Positions 2,448-46,181 of a stretch of DNA of 64,000 nt are shown in pieces. The notes beneath the pieces are model-generated. The model had not been told where the DNA came from, did no database searches, and saw only the letters and a list, made by a program, of their open reading frames with translations. The position numbers were made by a program, and so were the translations under genes. Source of the stretch: Candidatus Dojkabacteria bacterium (GTDB lineage: Bacteria > Patescibacteriota > Dojkabacteria > SC72 > JAHDCA01); assembly GCA_030583845.1 (NCBI GenBank), contig CP129478.1, forward strand, positions 407,175 to 471,174. Reading direction: 5' to 3'. The stretch's first letter is position 1; each line of letters begins with the position of its first letter.

Positions 2448-2476
2448 ATTTTAATGTCATATGGCAGAATCGTCAA
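2448..2476 (-). promoter_or_regulatory. sigma70-like promoter for groES-groEL (TTGACG-17-TAAAAT)
   Basis: On the minus strand: -35 TTGACG (2476..2471), 17-nt spacer, -10 TAAAAT (2453..2448), followed immediately by the CIRCE-like repeat. Confidence 0.5.
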
Positions 2477-2502
2477 GCCTAATTTATCAGATATTAAGCC
2501 AG

Positions 2503-3288: not shown

Positions 3289-3289
3289 C

Positions 3290-5086: not shown

Positions 5087-5261
5087 GACTTTTGGTTAAA
5101 TAAATAGTTGTAGAATATAAGTTTCAACGTAGTAGTTTGCTTAAAATGCGTGTCATTTAGCGAAAATTAAGCATCGGGAATTATGATATACGTTCCAATA
5201 ACTTTTATCAACTCACTATTTTCATACGAAATTAACCTTTGGGAATTACAATTAGAGCAGT

Positions 5262-6053: not shown

Positions 6054-7963
6054 GCCTTCTCCTTATCGTCGTCAGACTTCTTCTCTTTCCCTTTAGCATC
6101 TTTATCTTCTCCACCCTCTTTCTTCTCACCCTCCTCTTTCTCAACCTCTTGGGCTGCCTGCTGATACATCTTCTGGCTGATTTCACCAACCAACTTCTGT
6201 AGCTCAGATGTCTTCTCCTTCACCTTCTCTACATCGATTGGGTCAGCCTCGATTAGCTTTTTCAGCTCTTCGATCACCTTCTCAGCCTCTTTCTGCTTAT
6301 CTGCGTCGATCTTATCTTTGTTCTCGCTAAACAGCTTCTCTGTGTTAAATATCAATGAGTCGGCGTCATTCTTTGCTTCTGCTTTCTCTTTCTTCTCCTT
6401 ATCTTCCTTCGCGAATTTTGCTGCGTCGTCTACCATCTTTCCGATCTCGTCGTCGGACAAACCGGTATTCGCAGTTATTGTAATCTTCTGCTCCTTGCCC
6501 GTAGCCTTGTCAACAGCTTTCACATTGAGGATTCCGTTTGCGTCTAGTGCAAATGTAACCTCGATCTGTGGCACTCCGCGTGGTGCGGGTGGAATTCCGT
6601 CTAGCATGAATTTGCCAAGCGTCTTATTGTCTGACGCCATTTCTCGCTCACCCTGAAGCACGTGCACTTCGACCGATGGCTGATTGTCAGCATAGGTTGT
6701 AAAAGTCTGTGTCTTCTCAGTAGGGATTGTGGTGTTTCGTGGGATCATCACGGTGCGAACTCCACCGGCCGTCTCGATACCTAAGGTCAATGGTGTCACA
6801 TCGAGCAAAGTGATGTCGTGCACATCTCCAGCGAGTACCCCACCCTGGATTGCTGCTCCTACGGCTACAACCTCATCTGGGTTGACCGATTTATTTGGTT
6901 CTTTACCGAAGAATTCAGCAACTTTCTTCTGAACTGCCGGCATTCTTGTCATACCACCGACTAGGAGGATCTCTTTTATATCACTCTTTTCCAGCTTCGC
7001 ATCAGCCAATGCTTTCTTCATTGGCTCGATGGTGCTGTCGATCAGGTCGGACACCAGCTTCTCTAATTCAGCCCGTGTGAGATCCATGCGCAGGTGCTTT
7101 GGACCTGAGGCATCTGCTGTAATGTAAGGGATATTGATCTCGCTTTTCTCCGATGATGAGAGCTCAATCTTTGATTTCTCCGCTGCTTCTTTCAATCTTT
7201 GCAAAGCTGTCTTATCTTCTCGGAGGTCGATTCCGTTATCCTTCTTGAACTGCTCGGCAATATGATCAATCAATACCTGGTCGAAATTGTCACCGCCAAG
7301 GTGTGTATCACCATTTGTTGAAAGCACTTCAAAAACGCCATCACCGATCTCGAGGATTGAGATATCAAATGTACCGCCACCAAGGTCGTATACAGCAATG
7401 ATCTCATCATTCTTCTTGTCTAAGCCATATGCAAGTGCTGCAGCTGTAGGCTCATTTACCACGCGCTTCACATCTAGACCTGCAATCTTGCCTGCGTCTT
7501 TTGTAGCTTTACGCTGTGCATCGTCGAAGTATGCTGGAACAGTAATCACGGCTTCGGTGACCTCTTCACCCAGAAATGCTTCTGCATCTTTCTTAAGCTT
7601 GGCCAAGACTTTAGCCGAGACCTCCTGAGGTGACATCCATTTATCGCCCATTTTTACTTCGACGCCACCATTCTTGGCTTTCTGCATCTCGAATGGAAGC
7701 AGCCCTTTGTCTTTCTGGACTGCTGGGTCATCCCATCTACGTCCGATCAATCTCTTGACCGAGTAGATAGTCCCAGTAGGATTGGTTACAGCCTGGTTCT
7801 TTGCCGGTGTACCGACAAGCACCTGGCCTTTCTCATCCTGTGCAACTACAGATGGTATAAGTCGACCACCCTCGCTGCTTGCGATCACCTCTGGCTTACC
7901 ACCCGAGAGGTATGCCATTGCTGAGTTTGTTGTACCCAGATCTATTCCGATTATTTTTGCCAT
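6029..7963 (-). CDS. dnaK: molecular chaperone DnaK (Hsp70)
   Basis: 644 aa. [18 protein letters not shown], acidic C-terminal tail. Confidence 0.97.
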
Positions 7964-8049
7964 TGTTTATTATTTAATAATTTATATTACATGCTGATTT
8001 ATATTGCCAAGAATGACTTCGCACATATGCTGAAAAATTCCTGGCATTA

Positions 8050-8619
8050 TTAATTAGCAGGTACTTTATTTACAACCACCTTTGCTGGCCTGATTACGAG
8101 ATCATCTAATACATATCCGCCTTCGGCCAATGCATGAATAGTATTGTCTTCACCGAGATTCACTATGGCAATTGCCTCATGTAGCTCTGGGTCAAATCGA
8201 TCTCCTGGTTTCACCTCAATTGCTCTAATCCCAATCTGGCTCATAGCGCTTCTCAACTTACCCAATATATTGACCACCCCTTCTAGCCAAGCCTTGCCGG
8301 CAACATCAAGATGCATCTCCCTACTCTCGCCGATTGCATAATTCATATCCTCGGCAATTGTGATAAGCTCTGAAGCCATTTCCTTACGCATTTGAAACAT
8401 CCTCAGCTCGACCCTTCTGTCTATAGCCTGTTCCAGGTTTTGGTAGTCGGCCAAGCTTTTCTTCAACTGCGTTAACAGGGCCTCTTTTTCTTCACCTATT
8501 TTCTTACTATCACGAGTCACACTTTCTAACCTAGCTTCAAGCTCTTGAATCTTCTCAACAGCTACTGTGTTGCTCTCTTTTGTAATAGTAGTTTTTTTCT
8601 GTTTTGTATCTTTTTTCAT
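8050..8619 (-). CDS. grpE: nucleotide exchange factor GrpE
   Basis: 189 aa. Coiled-coil N-terminus and GrpE C-terminal beta domain (FDPELHEAI...VLDDLVIRPAKV). Lies between hrcA and dnaK. Confidence 0.85.
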   Translation of the reverse strand: MKKDTKQKKTTITKESNTVAVEKIQELEARLESVTRDSKKIGEEKEALLTQLKKSLADYQNLEQAIDRRVELRMFQMRKEMASELITIAEDMNYAIGESREMHLDVAGKAWLEGVVNILGKLRSAMSQIGIRAIEVKPGDRFDPELHEAIAIVNLGEDNTIHALAEGGYVLDDLVIRPAKVVVNKVPAN

Positions 8620-8633
8620 AATATTGATAGTGG

Positions 8634-9359
8634 CTAACTCCAGCCTTTAAGCGATTCCTCAACTGAAGTACGAACCTCTGATAACATCGGAATCACATTC
8701 CTATAATCCATTCTACGTGAGCCGATAACACCCATGTGCCCCACCCGGTTATCCCAAAACTTCATGGTTGTAAAAGCAACTGCACACTCGTTCAGATCTT
8801 TAATACCCAACTCACCGCCAATAAGCACAGTTACATCATCGCTACCGGCACGTGTAAACACGCTGCGCAACAGATTCTCATCTTCAAGCAGATCTAGAAT
8901 CCGCTGGAGGAAATCTACATTCTTCAACTCTTCATAGTTCATAAGCGAAGAGACTCCATAATGCCTCGACATATCGTCCATCAATATGAAAGATGCGCAT
9001 CCGCTATTCTGCACCAGCAGCTCCAAGATAGTCTTGATCAATTTCTCTGGGTAGAAGCGCACACTGAAAATTCCTTGCCTTATCTGCACCATTCGGATCG
9101 AGTCTTGCAGCGACTTATCAACCCGCTCATTTATATAGAGCCTAAATGCCATATCAGTTGGAAGCCTACCTGCTGAAGCATGGGGCTTGTCTAGATACCC
9201 AAGCTCCATCAGCTTCACCATCTCGTTGCGGACGGTAGCTGAGCTCACATTAAAACCGTACTTGTTGATGATCTGCGCAGAGCCAACCTCTTCGGGCTCT
9301 TGCATATACTCTTCAATTATCGCTAGCAGTATATCCTTCTGTCTTTCGGTAAGCGTCAT
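8634..9359 (-). CDS. hrcA: heat-inducible transcription repressor HrcA
   Basis: 241 aa. N-terminal winged helix (LTERQKDILLAIIEEYMQ...SSATVRNEMVKLMELGYL). hrcA-grpE-dnaK order is conserved. Confidence 0.8.
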   Translation of the reverse strand: MTLTERQKDILLAIIEEYMQEPEEVGSAQIINKYGFNVSSATVRNEMVKLMELGYLDKPHASAGRLPTDMAFRLYINERVDKSLQDSIRMVQIRQGIFSVRFYPEKLIKTILELLVQNSGCASFILMDDMSRHYGVSSLMNYEELKNVDFLQRILDLLEDENLLRSVFTRAGSDDVTVLIGGELGIKDLNECAVAFTTMKFWDNRVGHMGVIGSRRMDYRNVIPMLSEVRTSVEESLKGWS

Positions 9360-9386
9360 TTAGCACTCCACTTAATTAACTGCTAA
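9360..9386. promoter_or_regulatory. CIRCE element (HrcA operator) abutting the hrcA start codon
   Basis: TTAGCACTC-N9-AACTGCTAA (9/9 and 7/9 arm matches to TTAGCACTC-N9-GAGTGCTAA), directly adjacent to the hrcA ATG (9357-9359). Confidence 0.7.
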
Positions 9387-9415
9387 ATAATAGTGGATGA
9401 GCAAAAAGCTGTCAA
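9387..9415 (-). promoter_or_regulatory. sigma70 promoter TTGACA-17-TATTAT for hrcA-grpE-dnaK
   Basis: Minus strand: -35 TTGACA (9415..9410), 17-nt spacer, -10 TATTAT (9392..9387), then CIRCE, then the ATG. Little or no room for a Shine-Dalgarno sequence. Confidence 0.65.
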
Positions 9416-9453
9416 GGAAATGGTTAACGATTAGTGAAGAGCAAGATTGCTAC

Positions 9454-9996
9454 CTAGTCGGTGATCTTTGTGATTTGATGCAATGTAACTTGTGTTACAT
9501 TTCCACCTTTACTGTCAGAACTGCCATCAACCTTGACCTCGATCATTAGAGGGTAAACGAGTCCACCAATTCTATGAGTTACTGTTCTACTGTAATCATG
9601 CCACATCGGTAGAGCTGTGGAGCAACCCAACCATTCACGCTCATCTGTCTCAATTATGTCTACAGCATCACCAGTTATCTTTGCCTGCTGGACAGGAGTC
9701 CACTCATTCCCTCGTATATGTGCATATAGAGTAATGCTTACCCCTTCGCGCGTTGGGAGCCGATAGATCATAGATACTCTCACCTCAGCGGCAGAATCAC
9801 TCGGCTTGACAACTATATAATCAGCACTCTCCTCCATCCGCCCACCAAATCTCCAATCCATTGTTAAAACACCTGGCGCCTCCTGTAAGATTACCTTATT
9901 ATCCGGATCAGCATGATACACTTTTCCCATTCCAGTATTACTAGACACTTCTACAAAATGTTGAGCTTTAGGAGTCTCGGCGTTAATTACACTCAT
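9454..9996 (-). CDS. hypothetical protein
   Basis: 180-aa ORF with no recognisable motifs. Divergent from rplY. Confidence 0.45.
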   Translation of the reverse strand: MSVINAETPKAQHFVEVSSNTGMGKVYHADPDNKVILQEAPGVLTMDWRFGGRMEESADYIVVKPSDSAAEVRVSMIYRLPTREGVSITLYAHIRGNEWTPVQQAKITGDAVDIIETDEREWLGCSTALPMWHDYSRTVTHRIGGLVYPLMIEVKVDGSSDSKGGNVTQVTLHQITKITD

Positions 9997-10092
9997 TGGA
10001 TTTATTGGCGATAATCTTAACTAGTTACGCAACTATACCCTATAGTATGGCTACGGTCAACCCATTTAACAAGCTTCATCGCACAGAATTGT

Positions 10093-10121
10093 TGCTAATC
10101 TACCGCTCTTCTGGTACAATC
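10093..10121 (+). promoter_or_regulatory. sigma70-like promoter TTGCTA-17-TACAAT for rplY
   Basis: -35 TTGCTA (10093-10098), 17-nt spacer, -10 TACAAT (10116-10121), 9 nt before the ATG at 10131. Implies a leaderless or very short leader. Confidence 0.5.
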
Positions 10122-10130
10122 ACAACCGTT

Positions 10131-10814
10131 ATGACAAAGATCAAGCTCGAAAAAAGAGAATTAAAAGGAAAAAAGACCAAGCAGCTCCGCCGAGAAGGAA
10201 TCATCCCTGCTGTCATCTACGATAAGACAGGCAATTCCACAATGGTACAAGGAGTATTGGGAGATTTTGTAAGAATCCTCGAGAATGCTACAACTACAAC
10301 AGTTATCGAAGCAGAGCTTGACGGTACAGTTCACAAGACATTTATCAAAGAGATTGAGAAAGACCCTATCACAGACTCAGTGGTTCATATCTCATTCTTC
10401 GAGGTTAACGACAAGGATATCATCACATACGAGCTTCCTGTTGCACTTATCGGCACCTCTATCGCGGTTAAGAACAACCTCGGTGTATTGGTACAGCCAA
10501 CAAAGACATTGCACGTACGTTCTACATTGAGTGCCATGAAGCCGGTTCTCGAGCTCGATATTTCGGGTCTTGAGCATCCTGGTCAGAGCATCAACCTGAG
10601 CGAGATTCAGCTTCCTGAGGGTGTTGAATTCGTCCAGAAAGATGTAGAAGACAAAGCTATCGCCACAATTACCGATCTCCAGAAATCTGTTGAGGAAGAG
10701 ATTGCCGAAGAGGCAGCCGCAGCAGCAGAGGCTGGTGAGGTTGTTGAAGGTGAAGAGGGCGCTGAAGGCGCAGCAGAAGCAGCTCCAGAGGGTGAAGCAG
10801 CAGCAGAGGAGTAA
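10131..10814 (+). CDS. rplY: 50S ribosomal protein L25 / general stress protein Ctc form (acidic Ala/Glu-rich C-terminal tail)
   Basis: MTKIKLEKRELKGKKTKQLRREGIIPAVIYDK is the classic L25/Ctc N-terminus. The track ORF starts at 9996, but the homologous start is the ATG at 10131. Confidence 0.8.
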   Translation: MTKIKLEKRELKGKKTKQLRREGIIPAVIYDKTGNSTMVQGVLGDFVRILENATTTTVIEAELDGTVHKTFIKEIEKDPITDSVVHISFFEVNDKDIITYELPVALIGTSIAVKNNLGVLVQPTKTLHVRSTLSAMKPVLELDISGLEHPGQSINLSEIQLPEGVEFVQKDVEDKAIATITDLQKSVEEEIAEEAAAAAEAGEVVEGEEGAEGAAEAAPEGEAAAEE

Positions 10815-10828
10815 CCCCCAAAATTTTC

Positions 10829-11767
10829 ATGAGTATGGATATTGAGACACAACAACCTGGGCAGCCAGGTGGTGCAGATTTTGAGCCAGAAAAAGAGCTT
10901 CCAAGCCTAGCCGACATATGCATTGTGATTGATGGTCTTGACGGCTCAGGAAAAGGAACTCTTGCTGAATATCTAGCCAACCGTGGACTTGAGGGATACA
11001 ACTTCATCGTAGACTATCCACAATATGGATTGCCGTGGGGTAAAGTTCTCTACAGCCTTCTCCACGAGAATGATCAGGGACTCAGCATTAATGATCGCAT
11101 GTTGGTATATGCACTCAACCGGCTCGAGACAGCCCATCAACTCAGGTGGCATATGGAGAAGACTAGGATCGTACCTGATATAAAGATCAATCTGATATTT
11201 GACCGATTTGCGACTTCTAATATTATCACTGCCGCCTATTACTACAAACTGGTGCAAGACAAGTGGAGAACATTTCCTCTTGAAAATCCAGCTGACGAGC
11301 AGAGCAGCCTAAAGGATTGGATCCTGCCTATGTACGACCATATGATGCAGATAGACGCAGAATTTATGCAAATATTGGGGGTGAGCGATGCAGTAGTATT
11401 TGTACCGATGTTAGACGAGCGGATTTCTATGGAAAGTCTACTAAACGACCAATCCAGAAGCGGAGTAGATATGTATGAGACTGCAAGCGTGCAGGGTCTA
11501 GCGAGAAAATTGTATAGAATCGTCGCCGAGGCTCACCCTGAGAGATTACATCTATACGACCAGCATAATGGTGACAAGCGGATGAGTACCGAGGAGCAAG
11601 CAATGCATATACTTGGAGCGCTCGGCTTATCTGAAGCCCCAGCAGGAACGGCGAACAGGGTCAACTATGCATTCTACAAAGAGTTAGTCGATCGTGATGC
11701 GGTAAACGCTTTGTTGGAGAGGTTTGGCTCTGAGGAGCTGAAGAGGTTAAACCCGTACGCGGTTTAG
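10829..11767 (+). CDS. P-loop nucleotide kinase, thymidylate-kinase-like (Tmk/dNK superfamily) with C-terminal extension
   Basis: 312 aa. IVIDGLDGSGKGT P-loop. DRMLVYALNRLE resembles the Tmk lid/DR motif region. Longer than canonical Tmk. Confidence 0.5.
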   Translation: MSMDIETQQPGQPGGADFEPEKELPSLADICIVIDGLDGSGKGTLAEYLANRGLEGYNFIVDYPQYGLPWGKVLYSLLHENDQGLSINDRMLVYALNRLETAHQLRWHMEKTRIVPDIKINLIFDRFATSNIITAAYYYKLVQDKWRTFPLENPADEQSSLKDWILPMYDHMMQIDAEFMQILGVSDAVVFVPMLDERISMESLLNDQSRSGVDMYETASVQGLARKLYRIVAEAHPERLHLYDQHNGDKRMSTEEQAMHILGALGLSEAPAGTANRVNYAFYKELVDRDAVNALLERFGSEELKRLNPYAV

Positions 11768-11816
11768 TGAGTTGTAAGGACCAAGCAGCTGCATAGGAGC
11801 ATAGCCAGTTGAACAC

Positions 11817-11843
11817 TCAAATAAAACCCTCCTTGCGGAGGGT
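11817..11843 (-). terminator. rho-independent terminator after rpsG (ACCCTCC-TTGC-GGAGGGT plus U-run on the minus strand)
   Basis: 7-bp GC-rich stem with a 4-nt loop. On the minus strand it is followed by UUUUAUUUG. Lies between convergent genes (11767/11871). Confidence 0.7.
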
Positions 11844-11870
11844 CCAATTACAAATCCATTACAGAGACTC

Positions 11871-12338
11871 TTACCACCTAAAGTGCGCAAACGCCTTGTT
11901 GGCCTCGGCCATACGCTCGACCTCTTCCTTCTTCTTTACAGCCTCACCTGCGTTGTTGAAGGCATCCATAAGCTGTCGCTCGAGCAACTTGTCAAAGCTA
12001 TCACCACTGTTCTTGCGGGTAATGCCGACGATCCATCGAACAACCAATGCTTCTTGACGCTCACCACTTACAGGAACTGGTACTTGGTAGTTTGCACCAC
12101 CTACTCGTCGTGACTTAACCTCCAATGAAGGACGTACATTGTCGACGGCCTGGTTGAGGAAGTCCATAGGGTCAACTTTCACATTCTTTGCACCCTTCTC
12201 CATCGCTGCATAAAAGATCTTCTCAGCCTTCTGGCGCTTACCATCGTGCATGATCTGGCTAATGAAGCGGGTAACCAGCTGGCTACCATACTTAGGATCT
12301 TTTCTTAACTGTCTCTGTTTTGCGGCTTTACCTCTCAT
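11871..12338 (-). CDS. rpsG: 30S ribosomal protein S7
   Basis: 155 aa, S7 signature (PKYGSQLVTRFI..., DAFNNAGEAVKKKEE...). Directly downstream of rpsL. Confidence 0.95.
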   Translation of the reverse strand: MRGKAAKQRQLRKDPKYGSQLVTRFISQIMHDGKRQKAEKIFYAAMEKGAKNVKVDPMDFLNQAVDNVRPSLEVKSRRVGGANYQVPVPVSGERQEALVVRWIVGITRKNSGDSFDKLLERQLMDAFNNAGEAVKKKEEVERMAEANKAFAHFRW

Positions 12339-12363
12339 ATCAGAACAAATTCATTACTTAAAA

Positions 12364-12777
12364 TTACTGAGCGTCAACCTTGGCTCCATACTTAGATCGA
12401 GCCTTCTTGCGGCCTTTTACGCCCTGAGTGTCATATCGACCTCTTACAACTGTGTACTTAACACCTGGGAGGTCTCGCTTTCGACCTGCCTTCACCATTA
12501 CTACTGAGTGCTCCTGCAAGTTGTGACCCTCACCTGGGATATAGGCTGTTACCTCCATACCGTTTGAGAGCCTTACCCTTGCGACTTTTCGCAAAGCTGA
12601 GTTAGGCTTCTTAGGTGTCATTGTCTTAACCTGAAGACATACACCACGCTTGAATGGGTTGTTTGCTGTTGAATAGCGATTTCTCAATGGGTTGAAGTTT
12701 GTCGCCAAAGCAATATGTCGACTCTTCTGTCGCTTGCTTTTTCTTGGTTTTCGAACTAGTTGATTTATTGTTGGCAT
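12364..12777 (-). CDS. rpsL: 30S ribosomal protein S12
   Basis: 137 aa. [12 protein letters not shown]...[14 protein letters not shown]...VVRG, canonical S12. Confidence 0.95.
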
Positions 12778-12825
12778 TGCCTGAATAACTCTTAATTCTA
12801 TTAAATATCTACTGTGGGAGTCTTA

Positions 12826-12850
12826 AAATCCTTCGGATTATACAATAAAA
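12826..12850 (-). promoter_or_regulatory. candidate rpsL promoter/leader: TATAAT followed by AATCC-GAAG-GATT hairpin; shared motif with the rpmH upstream region
   Basis: Minus strand reads TTGTATAATCCGAAGGATTTTAAG. The same 19-mer AAATCCTTCGGATTATA recurs at 63858-63876 upstream of rpmH. Confidence 0.35.
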
Positions 12851-12874
12851 ACTCCACTCGCGCTACCTTTTGTT

Positions 12875-12919
12875 GCCCCGCTAACTTATAGTCCGGATCA
12901 GACTATGAGTTAGCGGGGC
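12875..12919. terminator. long perfect stem-loop (12-bp outer stem GCCCCGCTAACT/AGTTAGCGGGGC with nested 7-bp stem) just after the rpoC stop
   Basis: Perfect 12-bp inverted repeat at 12875-12886 / 12908-12919. No strong U-tract on the rpoC strand, so it may be a factor-dependent or RNA-processing site between the rpoBC and rpsL units. Confidence 0.55.
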
Positions 12920-12927
12920 AAGTTTTC

Positions 12928-15900
12928 CTACTCCGTTGCCGTAATTACCTCCGGCTCTGCATAAAGCTCTTTCGCTTCTTCAATATCGATCCTTGCCTCG
13001 TCTCCAACTGGGATTCGGCGTCCAATGATCACATTCTCCTTCATACCCTGCAAAGTATCGACTCGACCGGTGATTGCCGACTCGGTCAACACTCTTACCT
13101 GCTCCTGGAATGACATAGCAGATAGGAAGCTCTCGGTCTTCAAAGCTGTAGTCTTGATACCAAGTAGCTTTGGTGCGATCAGTGCAACATTCTTGCCCTC
13201 TTCTCGCAATCCATCATTCAAAAGCTCAGCACCATACCTATTTACCAATGATCCGATCAGATACTCTGAATCACCAGCATCCATTACCATTCCAAGCTTG
13301 GCCATCTGTCGCACGATTACCTCAATGTGTACATCGTCGATGGTTACACCCTGCTCAGAGAACACACCCTGAACTTCACGAATCACATACTCCTGTGCCC
13401 TAGTGATCGATGCATATTCTGCGAGCTTCTTAGGATCAACTGAGCCTACTGTGATCTGTGTACCTGCTGTGACCTCCTGGCCATCAATGACGAGGATATC
13501 GAATCCTGAGAGCACTGAGATCAGCTCCTCTGCATCCAACTTACCTGTTACGGTCATAATGCCGTGGTCGATCTTTACGACACCTGTAAATGGAGCCTGC
13601 TTCTCTTTCTCATGCGAGTCAATGAAGAGTGTTTGTCCAATTGTCACCTTGTCACCATCGGCTACACTTACCTTCTTTGCATTTCCAACAATATAGTGGC
13701 GCTCTGACAACTTCTTACCAGTGATCAAGATCTGTGATGAGCCATCGTCTGCTGTTGTGATGCTTACCTTACCATCAACTGAAGCAATCTCTGCCTCTGC
13801 CTTAGGTGTTCGTGCTTCAAACAACTCTTCGACTCTTGGGAGACCCTGTGTGATGTCTACCTTCTTAGCACCACCGAAGTGGAACTGCTTCAACGTCATC
13901 TGTGTACCTGGCTCTCCGATCGATTGCGCAGCGATTACTCCTGCAGCTTTTCCGATCTCCACCAGCTTGTTCTGCTCAATATCGTGTCCATAACACATCT
14001 GGCAGATACCAAGTGGAGCCTCACATACGATTGGTGATCGGACGAATACCTCGTTGATTCCAAGCTCTTCTGAGTTCTCGGCAACCTCACGGGAGATAAT
14101 TTCATTCTTCTTCAGGACTACTTTACCCTTCCCATCTTTAAGATCCTGTGCGAGCACGCGACCCTCGATTGTCTTCTCAAATGAAAGCCTTCGCTCGTCG
14201 GCTCTTCGGATAATATAACCATCACCATCATAACCACAATCTTCCATTCTTACGATTACATCGTGTGCTACGTCGTGAAGCTTCCTTGTGAGGTAGCCTG
14301 ATGATGCAGTTCTCAAGGCTGTGTCAGCCACGCCCTTACGTCCTGCACCTGTTGCCACGAAGTATTCAAATGTACCAAGACCCTCTCGGTAGTTACCCTT
14401 CAATGGAAGCTTGATCCAATCACCTGAAGCATTTCTTGCCATACCCTTGATCGACATAATCTGTCGAGCCTGGATCTGACCACCGTTTGCTCCTGACGTA
14501 ACCATCTCAAACACTGGGTTGTTCTTATCAAGACTTGCCCATGCCTCAGCAGCAAGCTCGTCTGTGAACTCATTCCACATTGTGACCGAGAGATTTGTCT
14601 TCTCCTGCTCGGTTAGCAAACCCTGTAGGTAGTTCTCCTGGAGATGCAAATCTTTCTGCTCAACCTCTTGAATCCTCTTCTTAAGATCGATGTCGACCTT
14701 ACAGTCTTCCATCGAGAATGAGAATCCTAGTGTCGTTGCAAATTTGAATCCAAGCATCTTCAGGTCGTCGAGCAATCGCACAACTTCATCGAGTGAGTAT
14801 TGATCCTTGATCTCGCGGATAATCTCATCTACATCTGACTTGCCGATTCTCTGGTTGATAAACTTGTAATCCTCTGGCAGTACCTGGTTAAACATTACTC
14901 GCCCTACCGAAGTATTGTGAACTTTGCCCTTACCCTTTACAAATATTGCCTCGTCAATCTCAAGCAAGCCTCTATCGTATGCACGTACTGCTTCCTCGAA
15001 GCTTCCGAACATCCTTGGCTTATCGCTCTCCTTATAGTCAGTCATCAGGAAGTATCCAAGCAACATATCGTTGGTTGGGCTAGCTAGAACACCACCGTTC
15101 TTGATGTCGATAATGTTGTAGGTAGAGAGCATCTTCTCAACACCCTCTTTAATAGCCTCTTCTGTCAACAATACATGCACAGCCATCTGGTCACCGTCGA
15201 AGTCGGCGTTATAAGCCTTACATACCAATGGGTGGATTCGGATTGAATCTCCCTCTACCAATACTGGGTAGAATGCCTGGATTGAATACTTGTGCAATGT
15301 TGGGGCACGGTTTAGAAGCACAGGCTTATTCTTGATAATCTTCTCAAGGATGTCCCATACAATATCTTCTTCTGCATCGATCATCTCCTTTGCAACCTTG
15401 ATGTTTGGTGCAAGCTCAGTCTCAATAAGATCGTGGATCAGGAATGGCTTGAACATCTCCAATGCGACTGCCTTTGGCAGACCGCACTGGTGCAGCTTCA
15501 ATCTTGTGTCACCAACGATAACAGCACGACCTGAGTAGTCAACACGCTTACCGAGGAGGTTTCTTCGGAAGATACCCTTCTTACCTCTCAAGTCATCTGT
15601 CAATGACTTATAAGGGAGCTTCTTGTTGTTCATCATCGGCTTGCTTGGTCGGTGACTGTTGTCGATCAATGCATCTACTGACTCCTGGAGCATGCGCTTC
15701 TCGTTTCGGAGAATTACATCAGGCGCACCAATCTCAATAAGTCTCTTAAGACGATTATTTCGGTTGATGATCCTGCGGTAGAGGTCGTTAAGGTCTGAAG
15801 TTGCAAATTTACCACCTGATAGGGCGATAATAGGTCGCAACTCTGGTGGGATGACTGGCAATGTCTTGATTATCATCCATGATGGATCGATCTTGTTCTG

Positions 15901-16854
15901 GTAGAAGCCTTCAACATACTGCAATCTTCGGATCAAAGACATCTTCTTTGCCTTTGATTTCTGATTCTTGATCTGGTGCTTAAGGTTTGAGACCTCTCCA
16001 TCGAGGTCAATCTTATCCAAAAGCTCCTGAATAGCCTCAGCACCCATCTTTGCTTTGAAGAAGAGCAGGTCACGATCCTCAAGGTCAACATACTCATCTT
16101 CTGTAATTATTGTGCCTACTGTTACCTCTTTTAGAAGCTTCATCAGTTTTGTATAGAAGGTCTCGATCGACTCCTCTCGCTCTGCAAACTCGCGTCGAAC
16201 CTTCGCAACTTTCTGGCTCCTCTTATGCTCGATCTGACTTGCCTTAAATTCTGCCTTTGACTTATCTTTCTCTTTCTTGCCACTCTGCTTGATCTGACCA
16301 TCAAATTCATCGTTCACTTCCTTAAGCGCAGCTTCCAATTCTGTATCCAGTGTCTTTCGATCTTCTGCGAGATACTCTTCAGCAGCCTTTACCTTCACCT
16401 CTCGGGACTCATTGTCCACTTCAACAACCATATATCTGGTGTAGTAAACAACTGAGAGCATCTTCTTGTGTGACATATCGAGAACGATAGACATCTTGTT
16501 TGGGACACCGTATGCAAACCATACATGTGTTACAGGTACTGCGAGGTCGATGTGACCCATTCGCTCGCGTCGCACATCTTTTCGAGTTACCTCTACACCA
16601 CACTTATCACAGATAATGCCCTTGTATCGTACTTTCTTATACTTACCACAGAAGCATTCATAATTCTTGGTAGGACCGAAGATCTTCTCACAGAAGAGAC
16701 CCTCTGGCTCCATCCTATATGTTCGGTAGTTAATGGTCTCGGCTTTTGTAACCTCACCATATGACCACCCTTTGATCTGCTCCGGCGATGCAAGCGTGAG
16801 CTTCAATGCATCGAAGTCGGAGTAGTCCTGTCTAAAGTTCTTCTTGGTTTTCAT
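12928..16854 (-). CDS. rpoC: DNA-directed RNA polymerase subunit beta' (RpoC)
   Basis: 1308 aa. NADFDGDQMAVH catalytic motif, zinc-binding CxxC N-terminus, full-length collinear. Confidence 0.97.
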   Translation of the reverse strand: MKTKKNFRQDYSDFDALKLTLASPEQIKGWSYGEVTKAETINYRTYRMEPEGLFCEKIFGPTKNYECFCGKYKKVRYKGIICDKCGVEVTRKDVRRERMGHIDLAVPVTHVWFAYGVPNKMSIVLDMSHKKMLSVVYYTRYMVVEVDNESREVKVKAAEEYLAEDRKTLDTELEAALKEVNDEFDGQIKQSGKKEKDKSKAEFKASQIEHKRSQKVAKVRREFAEREESIETFYTKLMKLLKEVTVGTIITEDEYVDLEDRDLLFFKAKMGAEAIQELLDKIDLDGEVSNLKHQIKNQKSKAKKMSLIRRLQYVEGFYQNKIDPSWMIIKTLPVIPPELRPIIALSGGKFATSDLNDLYRRIINRNNRLKRLIEIGAPDVILRNEKRMLQESVDALIDNSHRPSKPMMNNKKLPYKSLTDDLRGKKGIFRRNLLGKRVDYSGRAVIVGDTRLKLHQCGLPKAVALEMFKPFLIHDLIETELAPNIKVAKEMIDAEEDIVWDILEKIIKNKPVLLNRAPTLHKYSIQAFYPVLVEGDSIRIHPLVCKAYNADFDGDQMAVHVLLTEEAIKEGVEKMLSTYNIIDIKNGGVLASPTNDMLLGYFLMTDYKESDKPRMFGSFEEAVRAYDRGLLEIDEAIFVKGKGKVHNTSVGRVMFNQVLPEDYKFINQRIGKSDVDEIIREIKDQYSLDEVVRLLDDLKMLGFKFATTLGFSFSMEDCKVDIDLKKRIQEVEQKDLHLQENYLQGLLTEQEKTNLSVTMWNEFTDELAAEAWASLDKNNPVFEMVTSGANGGQIQARQIMSIKGMARNASGDWIKLPLKGNYREGLGTFEYFVATGAGRKGVADTALRTASSGYLTRKLHDVAHDVIVRMEDCGYDGDGYIIRRADERRLSFEKTIEGRVLAQDLKDGKGKVVLKKNEIISREVAENSEELGINEVFVRSPIVCEAPLGICQMCYGHDIEQNKLVEIGKAAGVIAAQSIGEPGTQMTLKQFHFGGAKKVDITQGLPRVEELFEARTPKAEAEIASVDGKVSITTADDGSSQILITGKKLSERHYIVGNAKKVSVADGDKVTIGQTLFIDSHEKEKQAPFTGVVKIDHGIMTVTGKLDAEELISVLSGFDILVIDGQEVTAGTQITVGSVDPKKLAEYASITRAQEYVIREVQGVFSEQGVTIDDVHIEVIVRQMAKLGMVMDAGDSEYLIGSLVNRYGAELLNDGLREEGKNVALIAPKLLGIKTTALKTESFLSAMSFQEQVRVLTESAITGRVDTLQGMKENVIIGRRIPVGDEARIDIEEAKELYAEPEVITATE

Positions 16855-19800
16855 TGGTCTCCTCGCTCTTCGCGTTAGAAATTAGATCAAGGTTTATGCA
16901 GAGTGCATTCAACTCTTTTACGAGTACCTTGAATGACTCCGGTAAGTTGATATTTTCAATCTTCTCACCATGGATAATTGCTTTGTAAGCCTGGGCACGT
17001 CCCTGGACATCGTCTGATTTGATAGTGAGCATCTCCTGAAGTGCATACGGTGTCCCGTGTGCCTCGAGAGCCCATACTTCCATTTCTCCGAATCTCTGAC
17101 CACCCATCTGTGCCTTACCACCAAGAGGCTGCTGTGTTACCAATGTGTATGGTCCTGTAGATCTAGCATGTACCTTCTCGTCAGCGATATGCTTCAGCTT
17201 CAACACATACTTCATACCTACGGCTACTTTCCTTGGGAACTTCTCACCTGTCCTACCGTCATACAGATCAACCTTCTCTGCCATCTCAAATCCGTTCTTC
17301 TTCAATTCTTCTGCAATCCACTCGCTGTTTACATCCTCAAATGTTGGGATTGAGAGCTTGATTCCAAGCATCTCGGCATAGTGCCCGAAGTGCACCTCAA
17401 GCGCCTGACCCATGTTCATACGCTTTACAAATGTAGGTGTCAGGACAATATCAACTGGCTGTCCATCTGCCGTGAAAGGCATATCCTCAACTGGCCTGAT
17501 AGCTGCGATTGTGTTCTTGTCTCCGTGCCTACCCGACAGCTTATCACCGTAGTCTACTTTCTTGGTCTCTGCGACCCATACCTTCACCTGCTTTAGCACG
17601 CCTGGCTTCAACTTATCGTCATTCTCGACTGATAGCATCTGCGTCTTAACAACAATACCTTTCGATCCGTGGGGAACTCTGAGTGATACATCTCTTACTT
17701 CGCTTGCAGCTTTTCCGAAGATTGCTCTCAAGAGCCTTTCCTCAGCTGTAAGCTCCTGCTCACCTCTTGGTGCTACGATACCGGCGAGGATATCTCCACC
17801 ATTTACACGTGCACCTACTCGTACAACACCCTCGATATCAAGATTGTGCAAGATTCTGATCGCTCACATGTGGGATATCTGCAGTAAGTACCTCAGGTCC
17901 GAGATCTGTATCTCGGAGATCTTGCATATATTCTCGGATATGGATTGATGTCAAAGTGTCATCACGCACAATGCTCTCTGAGATAACTGTTGAGTCCTCA
18001 TAGTTATAACCCTCGTAGAACATCAATGCTGCTCGAATATTTGTACCAAGTGCTAGCTCACCATTGTCCATAGTTGGACCGTCAACGAGCACATCATCTT
18101 TCTTAAATTTCTGTCCTACATCGACACGTGGCCTCTCTGAGAAAGCTGTGTCATAGTTCGACCTGAAGAATTTGGTGATCTTGTACTCCTTCTTTCCAAG
18201 CTTCTTATAATCAACCAAGATATGGTCTGCATCAAGTGTCAGTACTACACCATCATCTTCTGCGAATACACCCCAACCTGACTGTCGAGCAACGATCTCT
18301 TCATATCCTGTACCAACCATAGGTGCCTGCTGCTTAAGCAGAGGGACAGCCTGTCTTTGCTGGTTTGAACCGGTAAGCGCTCGCTTCGAGTCGTCGTGGT
18401 GAACAAATGGGATAAGAGCCATACCTACACCTGCCTGCTGTGCAGCAACCAGGTCGATATAGTTCACCATCTGTACATCCTGCATCAAGAAGTCTCCCCT
18501 ATACCTTACAGGTACGATCTTCTCAAGGATGTTGCCATCTCCGTCCACCTTGATGCCTTGCAAAGTAACATGCGCATCTTTCTCACTTGCTGCATCTAGA
18601 TACTCGATCGACTCTGTGATGAACGATCGAACCTCTAGCTCCTTCATATCCTTATTCTTAGCCAACTTTGTCGCAATTGCGGCTGTGATTACCTCACCCT
18701 CTTTTACGATAAGTTTGCCAGCCTCTTTGATATCTTCTGCGGCTAATCTTCCAACTGCATCCTTGCCATTGTTCTTTACATGATTGCGGACTACGTAGTA
18801 TGGAGCCTCGATAAAACCAAAGTCGTTGATCTTTGCGAACATTGCCAGCTGGTTTACAACACCGATCGATGCGCTTTCTGGGCTGGTGATAGGGTCGATA
18901 CGTGAGTAGTGTGTGTGGTGAACCTCACGGATTGAGAATGTAGCTCTCTCCTTGGTGATACCACCTGGGCCTGATGCGGTTACTTTTCGCTTATTCTCAA
19001 GCTCTGAAAGGATATTTGCCTGATCCATGAACATTGAAAGCTGGTTTGAGCCGAAGAAGTTGAGGATCGCAGCCGAGATAGGCTTGGTGCTGACAAGCAT
19101 TGATGGTGTAAGTTTTGAATCCTCACCGTACATGCTCATCTTATCCTTAATATTCTTCTCTACTCTTCGTACACCTACTCTGAGCTGGTCGATCAATACC
19201 TCACCGACGCTTCGAATTCTTCGATTTGACAATGAGTCGATATCGTCCGCTGTTTCAACGCCGTTGTTGATCTGGATAAGCTTCTTGATTATCAAGATCA
19301 GATCATCTGTGTAAAGCCTGCACTCTGGACCCTCAAGAGGATACTCTGTGCCAAGCTTTCGGTTGAGCTGGTAACGACCAACCTTTCCGAGGTCAAACCT
19401 TCTGTCATTGAAGAAATGTCCCTTAACATACTTCTCTGCACTCTCCAGGGTTACATTCTCATCAGGTCGGAGCTTGTTGTAGACATTGATTACCGCCTCT
19501 TCTCGTGATCTTGTGAAATCTCTTGCCAATGTAGCTTCTATATATTTGTGGTCTTCACTTGTATCTACATCTTTGAAAAGATCCCTTATCTCATCGTCTG
19601 ACTCATAACCCAAAATACGGAGAAGCTCGGTAAGGAGTACCTTTGGTCTCTTCTGTACCAATCTAATTGAGATTACATCGTGCTTGTTTACTTCAAATTC
19701 ATACCACTGTCCTCGTGCTGGCATCAGCTTTGCCGAGTAAAGGTTTCTTGCTGGAGATTTATCACTGATGTCGAAAAGCACTCCCTCTGCTCGCACTACC

Positions 19801-20213
19801 TGATGGGTAACTACTCTGCGTACACCATTAATAACAAAGTAGCCATCTTCAGTCATTAGAGGCATATCTGCCACGAATATCTCCTGCTCCTTGAGCTCAC
19901 CAGTCCTGTTGTTCAGCAGCTGCGAAGTCACGTATACAGGCGCATCATAAGAAAGCCCCTTGTCAGAGGCTTCTTCTACTGTGCGATTTGGCTTCCCATA
20001 TCGAAAATCCTTAAAGTCGAGGGTCCACATCCTCTCCATAGTGTCTTTCACCGGGGTGATTTCGGAGAAGAGGTACTCAAGGCCATCCTTCTTAAATTCT
20101 TCAAACGATTTGATCTGTGCTTCGATAAGATTCGGAAATTGAATCTTTGACAGATCTGTAGCACCGAGGTTGACTCTGCCCGCCCGGTTACTCAAGATTT
20201 GCTTTGCTGCCAT
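16832..20213 (-). CDS. rpoB: DNA-directed RNA polymerase subunit beta (RpoB), split into two overlapping ORFs by an apparent +1 frameshift near 17840-17851
   Basis: The N-part ORF (to about 17838) ends ...ADIPHVSDQNLAQS*. The C-part ORF begins (TTG)HNLDIEGVVRVGARVNGGDIL. Together they align collinearly with E. coli RpoB ...[32 protein letters not shown]. One extra nucleotide within AATCTTG restores the frame. Confidence 0.9.
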
Positions 20214-20607: not shown

Positions 20608-22891
20608 ATGGGAAGACGAAAAAAAGCGACATCGGAAATAACTATTCATAGTAAAGAAACCAGGATTATACTTGGTTTATTCCTCATACTTATAGCGCTT
20701 ACGCTTATCGCTGCACCGTTCAGCACAGAGGCTGTCTTCGAGCCGATTGTATTCTATCTTGGGGTACCATCAGTGGCCTGGGGAATCCTCATACTCCTCA
20801 TGGCAATCCGCGTCATCAAAGGCCCGAGCAAGTTTACAAACTGGAAAACCATTACAGGTACGCTTCTTATCGCTCTAATTCTCAACATCCTCTTCACATT
20901 TTGGATCCCCGAGGAGATATTAAGCAGCCAGACAGACTTCTCCAATGAAGGTGGCCAACTCGGATATATATTGCACACACAGCTAAATGCCATGGTAGGA
21001 GACTTCATCGAATTTGTACTTATTATTGTATTAATAATTGTAGCCTTCTCCCTCATCTCAGGTGTAAGCCTCGAACGGATCTCAAATAGTGTGGGCAACC
21101 TATTCGACAAGCTATTTGAAAGCCGCAATAAACTGAAGCTTCCAAAAGGTGAGGATGACGACGGAATCAGCATTGTAGATAGTATGTTCAAAGGCGGCGA
21201 CGACGATGAGGCTATAGATGAAGCAATTGAGCCAGAGATTGAAAATGGAGCCGAGCCGATCGCGAATATGAGGGCAAAAACCGAGCCAAATATGAGTGCC
21301 AACGTCGAGGCAGAGATCCGTGAAGCAACAGGCAAAGAGTTCGTAGAATCACCAAAGTCAAACAGCAAAGAAAGCAGTGAAGAGGAAAGCAGTACACTTA
21401 GCGAGCCACTATATCCAAACTGGAAATTCCCACCAGTAAACCTGCTCCAGAAGCCACAGGTCAGCCCGCAAGACCCAAACCTACACAAGCGCAACGCCAG
21501 CGTCATCGAGAAAACCTCTGCGCAGCTTCAATATTGAGTCACGTATCAGCAAAGTCACAATCGGCCCAACAGTCGTCCAGTACGCTCTAAGCATTACCGT
21601 AGGCACCAAGGTCGCAAAAGTGCGCAACCTCTCAAATGACATCGCATTGGCTCTAGCGACACCTGAGTCACAAATCCGCATCGAGGCTCCGATCCCTGGC
21701 ACCTCATTAATTGGTATCGAGATCCCCAACCCTACCCCGAATTTTGTATTCATCCGTGAGCTGGTCGAGAAGCTGAATGAAGAGCACGACAAATATAGAC
21801 TACCTATCATTCTTGGTAAGAATGTCGCTGGCCAACCAATCATCAAAGACCTCACAAGTCTCCCCCACCTCTTGGTCGCAGGCGCGACTGGTACCGGTAA
21901 ATCTGTAGGTATCAACTCGCTACTAACTGGTCTACTTATGACCAAGTCTCCTGATGAGCTAAAGCTTATTCTCGTCGACCCAAAGATGGTTGAGATGGCG
22001 CCTTATAATGGCATCCCTCACCTACTCACTCCGGTCATCACAGATATGGAGCTGGTAGTAAATGCGCTACAATGGACTGTCGAGGAGATGTTGAAGCGGT
22101 ATAGGGTATTGAAGCAGATCGGAGCCAGGAATATCACCGAGTACAACGACAAGGTTGGCGATCTAACAATGCCATACATAATAGTAGTAATCGATGAGAT
22201 GGCTGACCTTATGCTTACGACTGGAGTAGATGTAGAGTCAAAGATTGTACGACTAGCTCAGATGGCACGAGCAGTGGGTATTCACCTAATATTGGCAACC
22301 CAGAGACCTTCTGTAGATGTAATCACTGGCTTGATCAAGGCAAACGTGCCGGGTCGAATCGCATACAGCGTATCGACAGCTATCGACTCACGAGTAATCA
22401 TCGACCAGACTGGCGCAGAGACACTGATCGGCAAGGGAGATATGATGTTTAAATCACCTTCTACAGGCAGACCTATCCGTATGCAGGGTGCTTGGACTGA
22501 CACAGTCGACACCGAGGCGATCATCAGCTTTATCAAAGACCAGACGAAAGAGCTTAAGTATAGCGACGCAATCACCCAGCCGAAAGAAGAGAAGTCAGAA
22601 GGCGGAGGAGCTGCTTCGGGTCATTCAGATGACGCAATGTTCGCAGATGCACTCGAGGTAGTTGTAAATGCTCAAAAGGCATCGGCCTCCCTACTCCAGA
22701 GGAGATTGAGGATCGGTTATAACCGGGCTGCCAGATTGATTGATGAATTGCATGAGGCAGGAGCAATAGGCCCACAGGAGGGTAGTTCACCACGAAAAGT
22801 GCTAGTCTCCAGCAGTGATCAGATCTTAGGCGCAGGCAGCAGTGACGTTGATGATTTTGCAGACAACCAGGACGACAAGTCCGACTTCTAG
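20608..22891 (+). CDS. ftsK: DNA translocase FtsK/SpoIIIE (N-terminal membrane domain, linker, motor, gamma domain), with an apparent +1 frameshift near 21521-21529
   Basis: ORF1 (20608..21537) gives 4-TM and linker. The frame-2 reading from about 21440 gives ...FNIESRISKVTIGPTVVQYAL... (the FtsK alpha/beta start), then the Walker motor VAGATGTGKS and gamma domain LLQRRLRIGYNRAARLIDELHEAG. The junction KTSAQ(L)/FNIES matches the FtsK ETLAEFGIEA region after skipping 1 nt. Confidence 0.85.
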
Positions 22892-38390: not shown

Positions 38391-38612
38391 ATGCTAATTA
38401 ATGAAATCTTAACTACTTCATACTACGAGTTTTGAACAGAAATGTCACTCGACTGGCAGCACCTTCAAAAAAGCTCTGCAGTAATGTAAAATCACTCCTA
38501 GTAAAATATTAAATTTCCTCCCGCAGAAAATAACCATTTATCACAAGCCCCAACTACCCCGCAGAAGATATTTATAGGTGTATCCTGGCCATACGCCAGC
38601 GGCAACATCCAT

Positions 38613-40346: not shown

Positions 40347-40351
40347 CAAAA

Positions 40352-44274: not shown

Positions 44275-45237
44275 ATGACTACCAACAAAGTACAAAGCAT
44301 AACCGACGAACAAATTTCGCCTGAAAACGACCCTTGCAATACAACAGCACAGCCTGAGGTCGATCCCATCGACTCACTAATATACAGACTTATCGACGAG
44401 GCACCGCATTATCATGGATTAGACCCTTTTACAGAGAATTACCAATACGGTTCTGATAATCCGTTTACACGATCCGAGCGGGCAAAAGCAATTCACTACA
44501 GGGTAAAAGAATGGCTGGACTATCTAGAGGAGGAGAAATTATACATTACATCAGAGGATCAGTCCTCTGCAGGCTCTTTCACATTAGTGTCGAAGCTTAA
44601 GGAGTTTGAAGGTGATAAAGAATTCGAGGCTATCCTTCTCAATACATTGGTTCGGCTTTCAGCTCAGGAAATTGACACTCTCAGCTGTGCAGATATATGG
44701 AGAAGCGATCTTTCAGCAGTGCATGAAGCAATCAAGAGATCAAGAATACTCTTCGATCAGAGAAAGGGTAATAGAACTCTCACAAAGCATGCGCTAAGAG
44801 TGGGTACAGCTATCTGCCTTGCGCTAATTCTTGCTTCATGCGCGAGTGGCGACTCACAACCAGAGTTTGACCATATAGTTTGTAGAGTTGGCGACTCCTT
44901 GGAAGATTTCTATCCAGTGCAAGGATCGGACGGGACAGTGAGTTACACATCAAGTGGGATTGAAGACCCATGGATAACATTAAGCTTTGGATCAGGCACA
45001 ACTCATCCTCTTTACTTAACACCCGCTGGCAATGGCACACCACCTCTACCTCAAGGTACTAATATCGAAGGAGTGGTCGCACACAGAGGATCCACAAGTA
45101 CAGACCCATTAGGAAGAATTCTTGGCTATTTGGAGTATCTATTCGATCCAAAAAAGGTCGTATTTGAGGCGACTGTTAGCCCTGATGATCCAAGCAAAAA
45201 ATGTGTAGGTGTGATGATTCCACCAACTCTACCTTAA
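44275..45237 (+). CDS. hypothetical single-pass membrane protein, paralog A (conserved N-terminal soluble domain, mid-protein TM with Cys, divergent C-terminal domain)
   Basis: 320 aa. The N-domain shares ...RAKAIHYRVKEWLDYLEEE... and ...LSAQEIDTLSCADIWRSDL... with the downstream paralog. TM LRVGTAICLALILASCASG. Confidence 0.55.
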   Translation: MTTNKVQSITDEQISPENDPCNTTAQPEVDPIDSLIYRLIDEAPHYHGLDPFTENYQYGSDNPFTRSERAKAIHYRVKEWLDYLEEEKLYITSEDQSSAGSFTLVSKLKEFEGDKEFEAILLNTLVRLSAQEIDTLSCADIWRSDLSAVHEAIKRSRILFDQRKGNRTLTKHALRVGTAICLALILASCASGDSQPEFDHIVCRVGDSLEDFYPVQGSDGTVSYTSSGIEDPWITLSFGSGTTHPLYLTPAGNGTPPLPQGTNIEGVVAHRGSTSTDPLGRILGYLEYLFDPKKVVFEATVSPDDPSKKCVGVMIPPTLP

Positions 45238-45257
45238 CAGTACACAATCTATCAGTA

Positions 45258-46181
45258 ATGACCACCGAAACAATTAGAGAAGAGATTAATAATAACGACT
45301 GTAACCAACTCCCCGAGAATTTGCTTATGCTTATTCAAAAATACCCACACCTCGAACAGCAGGCGATTTTAGCATCGAACAATATCCAACATTTTAGATC
45401 AGACGACCTCGGCACGGTGCACCAAGAATTCAATGACCATGCAGAGAGACACAAAGCTATAGCCTACAGGACACTCGAATGGCTGGAGTACCTAGATTCA
45501 ATACACGAGGGAGAGGTATTCCAAGAGCTATTTGGATTTGAAGCGGCAGAGCAATTTAGAAGTGCTTTGAGCGACCCAGATGAATCAAATATGATTGCCC
45601 TATCATTAGCAGTTATCTCCGCTATAGAGATCAATACGCTCTCGGTCTCCAATATCTGGCCGATGGATAAAAAGAAGCTTATGAGATCAGTAAGTCAATC
45701 TCGTGAAATCTACCCTCATATCGCTAAAAGTCTTGGCACATTGACAATGGTGCTATTGATAGCAGTTGCCTGTGCAACTCCATCTACACCTCCATACAAT
45801 TATGTTGTTTGTAGTAACGGTTATGAGCTCACCCTTTATACACAGGGTACAGGCACGGGAACTATTGGGGGGTTTAGGCGCGAACTGACTGCACCACCAG
45901 GTACAAACCTAACATTGGGATTACCAGGTAACTCTGGATGGGTAATCGATATCTCGCCACGTGCTCCGAGTCGAGGGATAGGGCAACATTCATCCGGATT
46001 TCTCGATCTAGAAGTTAATCCAACCATTCCTAATCCCCCTAATCCCCCTAATCAGATACCCGATCTTGATGAACTTGCCGACTCTTACCTTCAACCTCCA
46101 CTTATAACTTATACATCAGTTGATCCTCTAGCGATAGGAGACAGCCCTTCTAGCACATGTACTGGAATAAATGTTAGATAG
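45258..46181 (+). CDS. hypothetical single-pass membrane protein, paralog B (track ORF from 45201; start likely MTTETIRE at 45258)
   Basis: Shares N-domain motifs with paralog A (HKAIAYRTLEWLEYLD; ISAIEINTLSVSNIWPMD). TM LGTLTMVLLIAVACATP. The C-terminus is Pro/Gly-rich with PNPPNPPNQ and unrelated to A. Confidence 0.55.
   Translation: MTTETIREEINNNDCNQLPENLLMLIQKYPHLEQQAILASNNIQHFRSDDLGTVHQEFNDHAERHKAIAYRTLEWLEYLDSIHEGEVFQELFGFEAAEQFRSALSDPDESNMIALSLAVISAIEINTLSVSNIWPMDKKKLMRSVSQSREIYPHIAKSLGTLTMVLLIAVACATPSTPPYNYVVCSNGYELTLYTQGTGTGTIGGFRRELTAPPGTNLTLGLPGNSGWVIDISPRAPSRGIGQHSSGFLDLEVNPTIPNPPNPPNQIPDLDELADSYLQPPLITYTSVDPLAIGDSPSSTCTGINVR

Follow-up and report, generated by a model that had tools for sequence, protein, structure and literature searches.

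The ftsK gene of a Candidatus Dojkabacteria genome (WS6, CPR/Patescibacteria; GC ∼45%) was interrupted by one extra base, and the nearby rpoB gene by another, in a 64,000-nucleotide stretch of DNA that was analysed as a whole and is referred to hereafter as the window. Both breaks are probably single-nucleotide insertion errors in the deposited MAG consensus rather than real mutations, and the organism itself most likely has an intact ftsK (760 aa) and an intact rpoB (1126 aa). The two genes are divergent, rpoB-rpoC being on the minus and ftsK on the plus strand, with a spacer of 395 nt between them. The features of the locus are as follows.

20608..21516, plus strand: 5' part of ftsK, encoding the 4TM membrane domain and linker in frame 1, through ACC (Thr303); matches FtsK_4TM and aligns with residues 1-299 of a relative's FtsK.
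21517, plus strand: extra T causing a +1 frame change in ftsK; a one-column gap in both relatives, fixed also by T-L-x-S-F.
21518..22891, plus strand: 3' part of ftsK, encoding the alpha, motor and gamma domains in frame 2 (domain profiles, tblastn).
21526..21529, plus strand: CTT-C, the shift site of the original prediction, not the site of the frame change (alignment, motif).
21535..21537, plus strand: early TGA closing the frame-1 ORF of ftsK (...EKTSAQLQY*), read from the sequence.
17858..20213, minus strand: 5' part of rpoB (domain profiles, tblastn, alignment).
17857, minus strand: extra base in rpoB, A on the coding strand and T on the plus strand (GAT-C[A]GA-ATC); a one-column gap in both relatives.
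16832..17856, minus strand: 3' part of rpoB, in the +1 frame (domain profiles, tblastn).

The frame-1 ORF of ftsK (20608..21537, plus strand) encodes 309 aa, ends in ...NASVIEKTSAQLQY* and has FtsK_4TM as its only domain. The +1 frame, preceded by a TAA (21437-21439), is open from 21440 to 22891. Its translation includes ...LRSFNIESRISKVTIGPTVVQYAL..., and its domains are FtsK_alpha, FtsK_SpoIIIE and FtsK_gamma. Between them, the two ORFs hold all four Pfam domains (4TM, alpha, the motor FtsK_SpoIIIE, and gamma). When the 761-aa FtsK of a relative was used as a tblastn query, it matched collinearly in two segments, residues 1-299 in frame 1 and residues 297-757 in frame 2. Skipping one base gave an FtsK of 760 aa, with ...NASVIEKTLR / SFNIESR... 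at the junction, which aligned with its homologues from end to end. The repaired protein carries the four domains of an FtsK/SpoIIIE DNA translocase in one collinear chain. It has the same full architecture as that family and is collinear with the 120 homologues listed, the one-base interruption being the sole difference between the family and the ftsK of the window. The original prediction that ftsK is cut by a +1 frame change, that skipping one nucleotide yields a collinear FtsK of ∼760 aa, and that rpoB has the same kind of defect close by (one extra base, +1, 3.7 kb away) was borne out on these points.

The position of the frame change was fixed by comparison with the nearest relatives, two syntenic Logan contigs, L001 (SRR25057012, a 79-kb contig) and L002 (SRR23332755), whose FtsK proteins share 80% and 83% amino acid identity, respectively, with that of the window. 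In the DNA alignment the window reads GAGAAAACC[T]CTGCGC, as compared with AAAACC-CTACGA and AAAACG-CTACGA in the two relatives, which makes 21517 the extra base; near the junction it is the sole length difference from both of them. Deletion of T21517 restored ...IEKTLRSFNIES..., and deletion of C21516, T21517 or C21518 in each case gave Thr-Leu back. The motif T-L-x-S-F, which spans the junction and is carried by 60 of 60 Dojkabacteria FtsK proteins, was recovered only with the frame change at 21517. A shift at CTT-C, where the CTT follows the extra base by 9 nt, would yield EKTSAQLNIES, with loss of the invariant L, S and F of FtsK.

The +1 split of rpoB leaves two minus-strand ORFs, 17838..20213 and 16832..17851. 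The C-terminus of the first is ...SDQNLAQS*, and the +1 frame goes on with ...NLDIEGVVRVGARV... to 16832; this interrupts the Rpb2_6 domain at position 133 of a 373-position profile. The coding strand reads GATC[A]GAATC, against GATC-GAAT and GACC-GAAT in the two relatives, so that 17857 is the extra base, and over the whole of rpoB it is the sole length difference from the relatives. Its removal restored ...HVSDRILHNLD.... The junction peptide of the repaired RpoB is ...HVSDRILHNLDIEGVVR..., and the junction motif [DE]RILQ[NK]L was continuous in all 11 Dojkabacteria loci compared. A shift at the CTT, here 5 nt downstream of the extra base, would yield DQNLHNLD, replacing R-I. The repaired RpoB has 1126 aa and scored 1247 bits against a cut-off of 896 bits for the NCBIfam rpoB equivalog, in one stretch crossing the junction. 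A small oddity of this protein is Q789H, one of its three deviations at invariant columns, which lies 9 nt downstream of the insertion.

Beyond each insertion, the differences from the relatives are synonymous third-position differences of the +1 frame: CTG/CTA, CGC/CGA and TTC/TTT in ftsK, and ATC/ATT/ATA in rpoB. This indicates that selection has acted on the +1 frame as far as the insertion itself. Protein conservation fixes both insertion positions independently of the DNA alignment, and the placement of the ftsK frame change at 21526-21529 (CAG-CTT-C) in the original prediction was wrong, since the alignment and T-L-x-S-F put it at 21517. The sequence context that ftsK was said to have in common with rpoB fails likewise: with the extra base of rpoB at 17857, neither break is at a CTT and there is no shared motif. 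From these breaks it had been proposed that either a systematic artefact tied to sequence context or a shared biological mechanism was at work. An artefact is indeed the favoured reading, whereas the tie to context is lost along with the CTT; a shared mechanism found no support, the breaks being absent in the closest relatives and the pinned sites carrying no recoding signal.

Programmed +1 ribosomal frameshifting, or some other recoding, at a CTT-containing site would account for the decoding of both genes. In its favour, the two breaks share the +1 direction and each permissive shift window contains a CTT in frame. Re-pairing of CUU-C as UUC with tRNA-Leu(GAG) is conceivable, the CUU-U of prfB providing the analogy of CUU re-pairing in the +1 frame. 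However, CTT makes up 2.2% of codons in the window, and chance alone would place it in frame in both permissive windows in ∼8% of cases. The codon after CTT is a non-rare sense codon in each gene (CAA in ftsK, GCA in rpoB), and a shift at CTT would replace L-x-S-F in FtsK and R-I in RpoB. Above all, the breaks are not conserved. ftsK is intact (761 aa) in both L001 and L002, rpoB is intact (1126 aa) in L001, and the 120 listed FtsK homologues are without exception full length (677-818 aa) with FtsK_alpha, FtsK_SpoIIIE and FtsK_gamma, all but three of them having FtsK_4TM as well. Programmed +1 frameshifting is largely refuted by this non-conservation, and we regard it as very improbable.

The pinned sites themselves were devoid of recoding signals. 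Their 0-frame codons are ACC-UCU in ftsK and GAU-CAG in rpoB. On reading the sequence, no slippery P-site codon was found at either site, as ACC->CCU and GAU->AUC do not re-pair, and neither A-site codon is rare or a stop (UCU 9.8 and CAG 26.4 per 1000). No GGAGG-like stretch that might act as a Shine-Dalgarno-like stimulator was seen within 20 nt upstream (the 16S anti-SD sequence lies outside the window), and a search for unusual RNA structure around both sites found none (folding z-scores -1.07 to +1.17). Rfam returned one tRNA over the whole window and nothing else, and no family matched either of the antisense ORFs, 20754..21506 and 21481..21945. The sites are like that of prfB (CUU-UGA-C with an upstream Shine-Dalgarno-like stimulator) in the +1 direction and in having a CTT codon nearby, but the frame change precedes the CTT by 9 nt in ftsK and by 5 nt in rpoB, and there is no stop or rare A-site codon, stimulator or phylogenetic conservation. 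Conservation, a slippery P-site and a slow A-site with a stimulator, which characterize a prfB-type +1 site, were thus all lacking.

Transcriptional slippage needs long A/T homopolymers. The longest run at the pinned sites is AAAA at 21511-21514 in ftsK, with no homopolymer at the rpoB site, and neither site has an A or T run of about seven or more; slippage as known is thereby excluded. The present case resembles the endosymbionts Buchnera and Blochmannia, in which poly-A slippage rescues genes, in combining a small reduced genome with apparently frameshifted essential genes, but differs in that no homopolymer at either site exceeds four A. An alternative genetic code was also considered and rejected: TGA is a stop codon here (6 of 45 stop codons), and read-through would not restore the frame. 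It is very improbable that a thriving population genuinely carries the extra bases and translates both genes by efficient +1 recoding, at sites that are neither slippery nor conserved. Were the extra bases true in the reads, such recoding of essential genes would be a striking finding, and a CPR bacterium would have to possess a novel mechanism for it, for instance quadruplet decoding or ribosome hopping.

Highly unlikely, too, is a natural split of the genes, with the halves made as separate polypeptides that assemble into a working enzyme. Bacterial beta subunits tolerate some artificial splits, and the TTG at 17851 of the rpoB 3' ORF overlaps the upstream stop by 14 nt, which makes coupled re-initiation conceivable; the rpoB cut, however, falls within Rpb2_6. 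The 3' part of ftsK has no ATG, GTG or TTG until a GTG at 21620, inside the alpha domain, and a start there would drop the invariant GPTVVQYAL of that domain, so that the downstream half lacks a start of its own that preserves its domains. Neither a promoter-like site just upstream of the ftsK 3' part nor a terminator-like site after the 5' part was found. In each gene exactly one extra nucleotide sets the window apart from its unsplit relatives.

Single insertions apart, there is no decay in ftsK or rpoB. The repaired FtsK deviated at 0 of 151 nearly invariant columns, and the repaired RpoB at 3 of 380 invariant columns, as compared with 4 of 472 in the intact RpoC. The frame of every gene of the relative's contig (L001 together with L083, covering window 11.5-48.7 kb) was compared with the window, and frame changes were present in rpoB and ftsK only. 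Pfam coverage was complete in the remaining window genes. An intrinsic scan for abutting same-strand ORF pairs with coding-like character gave 10 pairs, and the 8 besides rpoB and ftsK are ordinary neighbours. Two further candidates were rejected as frameshifts: 44275..45237 / 45201..46181 are tandem paralogues, and DnaG and the methyltransferase are encoded by two genes in the relative as well. The 64-kb window thus contains two broken genes, rpoB and ftsK.

The extra bases might also be real, very recent frameshift mutations that leave the genes inactive, or barely functional through rare spontaneous frameshifting. This would fit their presence in the deposited record, where WKZ31501.1, WKZ31502.1 and WKZ31503.1 are fragments, and the identity of the assembly to a Logan assembly over 15.3 kb otherwise; RpoB Q789H, so close to the insertion, could mark a small real mutational event. 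However, in bacteria rpoB is essential, and conservation of ftsK is nearly universal. A consensus genome with both genes broken would not be viable, yet the strain occurs in several datasets. Furthermore, ftsK and rpoB are free of other decay, and the truncated 309-aa product was obtained from no Logan assembly. We consider real mutations unlikely, and errors in the MAG consensus the better explanation.

Exact-sequence look-ups identified the proteins of the window as WKZ31487-31574, from a 1,036,382-bp GenBank contig described as 'MAG: Candidatus Dojkabacteria bacterium'. The N-terminal FtsK fragment is WKZ31503.1, named '4TM domain-containing protein', and WKZ31504.1 is already the following gene, which leaves the ftsK 3' part without a protein record. 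The RpoB fragments are WKZ31501.1 (339 aa, QY318_01930) and WKZ31502.1 (791 aa, QY318_01935), both 'hypothetical protein'. Since the fragments were deposited as separate proteins, the breaks sit in the deposited record. A second Dojkabacteria isolate, cMAG.19 (CP129477.1), has its FtsK 933 accessions earlier, at WKZ30570.1; the two records belong to one accession run, which suggests the same submission batch. Accession adjacency also suggests that the window's contig comes from a PacBio HiFi-only, unpolished cMAG set from anammox sludge. In the cMAG.19 study, circular contigs were taken directly from anammox-sludge assemblies built from PacBio HiFi reads (hifiasm-meta, Flye, Canu), with no short-read polishing; the reads averaged Q29.5 in quality and 8.5 kb in length, and abundance was low for several of the Patescibacteria (bioRxiv 10.1101/2023.08.15.553441).

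Where a member of a HiFi-only set like this is rare, uncorrected read errors can persist in a stretch covered by very few reads. The two insertions, 3.66 kb apart, are closer together than the mean read length and may share one poorly covered stretch. Each adds one base relative to the close relatives, and the gene is otherwise under purifying selection on both sides of it. Genes disrupted by indel errors in long-read and metagenome assemblies, which appear at NCBI as 'frameshifted' pseudogenes or fragments, are similar: a single-base indel in an essential gene whose conservation is otherwise perfect, absent in relatives, with no recoding signals and with the fragments deposited separately. 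Residual HiFi errors are usually homopolymer-length errors, whereas the insertions here are both non-homopolymer, which counts against consensus errors. Also counted against them were the occurrence of two insertions 3.7 kb apart, both in essential genes (∼11% under uniform placement), and a same-strain SRR24881069 assembly without any difference over 15.3 kb. At both sites, the codon left after deletion of the neighbouring base is synonymous with that left after deletion of the extra one (ACC/ACT, Thr; CGA/AGA, Arg); a strain SNP turned into an insertion by the consensus step would also fit, a speculation that is not statistically compelling.

Contigs of the same strain were present in SRR24881069, a run that may consist either of Illumina reads of independent origin or of the HiFi reads themselves. 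One was 100.000% identical to the window at 2364-15205 and another was identical at 39603-42112, and this 15.3 kb contained no indels, which indicates that the assembly is not generally noisy. A contig of the unrelated run DRR779145 was 99.71% identical to the window, with 25 substitutions and no indels. The rpoC-side contigs of both runs (L085, L086) end at the same nucleotide, 15205, within the coding sequence of the conserved NADFDGDQMAV motif of RpoC, which we interpret as assembly graph branching at conserved k-mers. The 309-aa FtsK fragment and both RpoB fragments were recorded from NCBI only, and the same-strain flanking proteins S7, S12, GroEL, DnaK and RnpA were found in Logan assemblies as well. 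This is weakly consistent with absence of the extra bases from the Logan assemblies, and contig breaks could also explain it. Exact look-ups of the RodZ-like protein, RpoC, MetRS, DnaG and the FtsK C-terminal ORF found none of these proteins on record.

No same-species sequence was found among the GTDB matches listed, the best of which had 56% identity. A degenerate junction pattern allowing 1 or 2 bases had a single match in JGI metagenomes, which was intact and is uninformative. When 50%-identity representatives were searched with the 309-aa FtsK fragment, the best match was 39% and no same-strain partial protein was found; a junction-centred 214-aa search, in which all matches were proteins of 159-359 aa, gave the GenBank fragment as the only same-strain protein. 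An intact 1126-aa RpoB from the same 90% cluster, P0260, was rejected as the same strain, being an L001-like relative with 88 differences.

The breaks carry little biological weight, since both ftsK and rpoB are almost certainly normal in the organism. They do bear on data quality: a 'complete' HiFi-only GenBank MAG contains frameshifted essential genes, the fragments of which have been deposited as proteins. Such fragments pollute protein databases and depress marker-gene completeness estimates, and they are open to misreading as recoding or pseudogenisation in CPR bacteria.

A methylation-motif-linked error was considered and rejected. The rpoB site adjoins GATC, yet GATC occurs 381 times in the 64 kb, and its presence there means little. 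The only thing common to both sites is that the extra plus-strand T comes right after a C (ACC[T]CTG in ftsK, TTC[T]GAT in rpoB), a slight resemblance that we do not regard as a motif.

In GenBank, the two fragments of the split rpoB gene (16832–20213) are deposited as ordinary proteins, WKZ31501.1 and WKZ31502.1, each named 'hypothetical protein'. The 5′ part of ftsK (20608–21537) is likewise an ordinary protein, WKZ31503.1, named '4TM domain-containing protein', and there is no protein record for the FtsK motor part between WKZ31503.1 and WKZ31504.1. Residue 789 of RpoB (17846–17848, − strand; numbered on the 1126-aa protein obtained by removing the extra base at 17857) is His in the window, whereas Gln is invariant in the relatives covered (at least eight loci). 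Only 9 nt separate the His789 codon from the rpoB extra base upstream of it, and the residue is one of only three deviations among 380 invariant columns. It could be the mark of a small complex error or mutation.

A frameshift was also considered for a pair of overlapping reading frames, neither of which has a Pfam match:

44275–45237, + strand: first overlapping ORF
45201–46181, + strand: second overlapping ORF

This was rejected, as each ORF matches the same 300-aa protein of a relative, with 30% and 36% identity respectively, indicating that the two are tandem paralogues.

The start of the methionyl-tRNA synthetase gene was analysed over the region 38505–38615.

38613–40346, + strand: metG, methionyl-tRNA synthetase

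The HIGH catalytic motif of MetG reads HMGH in the window, where no ATG, GTG or TTG is found 5′ of it, the sole canonical start being the Met within the motif itself. The frame is open 5′ of HMGH and encodes the conserved ...TTPQKIFIGVSWPYASGNIH... there. The 82%-identical relative (contig L083, 9820–10001) shows this same metG arrangement, while more distant MetG homologues all start at a Met 5–25 residues before KIFIGVSWPY. The GenBank product, WKZ31574.1, has its start set at ATA 38574. The small clade to which the window belongs may use a non-canonical metG start codon.

HrcA (8634–9359, − strand) is only 241 aa long, both in the window and in the Logan contigs of the same strain. It matches the Pfam HrcA C-terminal domain from profile position 98 on, and the first half of this domain appears to be absent.

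Comparison of the window with L086, the 99.7%-identical rpoC-side contig from run DRR779145, revealed 25 substitutions, mostly clustered in three short tracts:

6626–6887: substitution tract in dnaK
10169–10463: substitution tract in the L25 gene
14587–14880: substitution tract in rpoC

This uneven distribution suggests recombination between strains. L086 and L085, its counterpart from the unrelated run SRR24881069, are both Logan contigs of the window's strain, and position 1 of each corresponds to the identical nucleotide, window position 15205 in rpoC, which falls in sequence coding for the conserved RpoC motif NADFDGDQMAV. We interpret this common end as the breaking of de Bruijn graph contigs at conserved k-mers.

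A cluster of rnpA, yidC and a jag/KhpB-like gene occupies 60976–63501 (− strand). Such a cluster usually adjoins dnaA, and the replication origin is therefore probably close to the right end of the window. Two large proteins encoded on the + strand have unusual domain combinations: a 712-aa protein (52442–54580) combines a Baseplate_J-like stretch with a weak DUF4177 match, and a 680-aa protein (57421–59463) combines a phage-holin-4_2 membrane domain with a type I phosphodiesterase domain.
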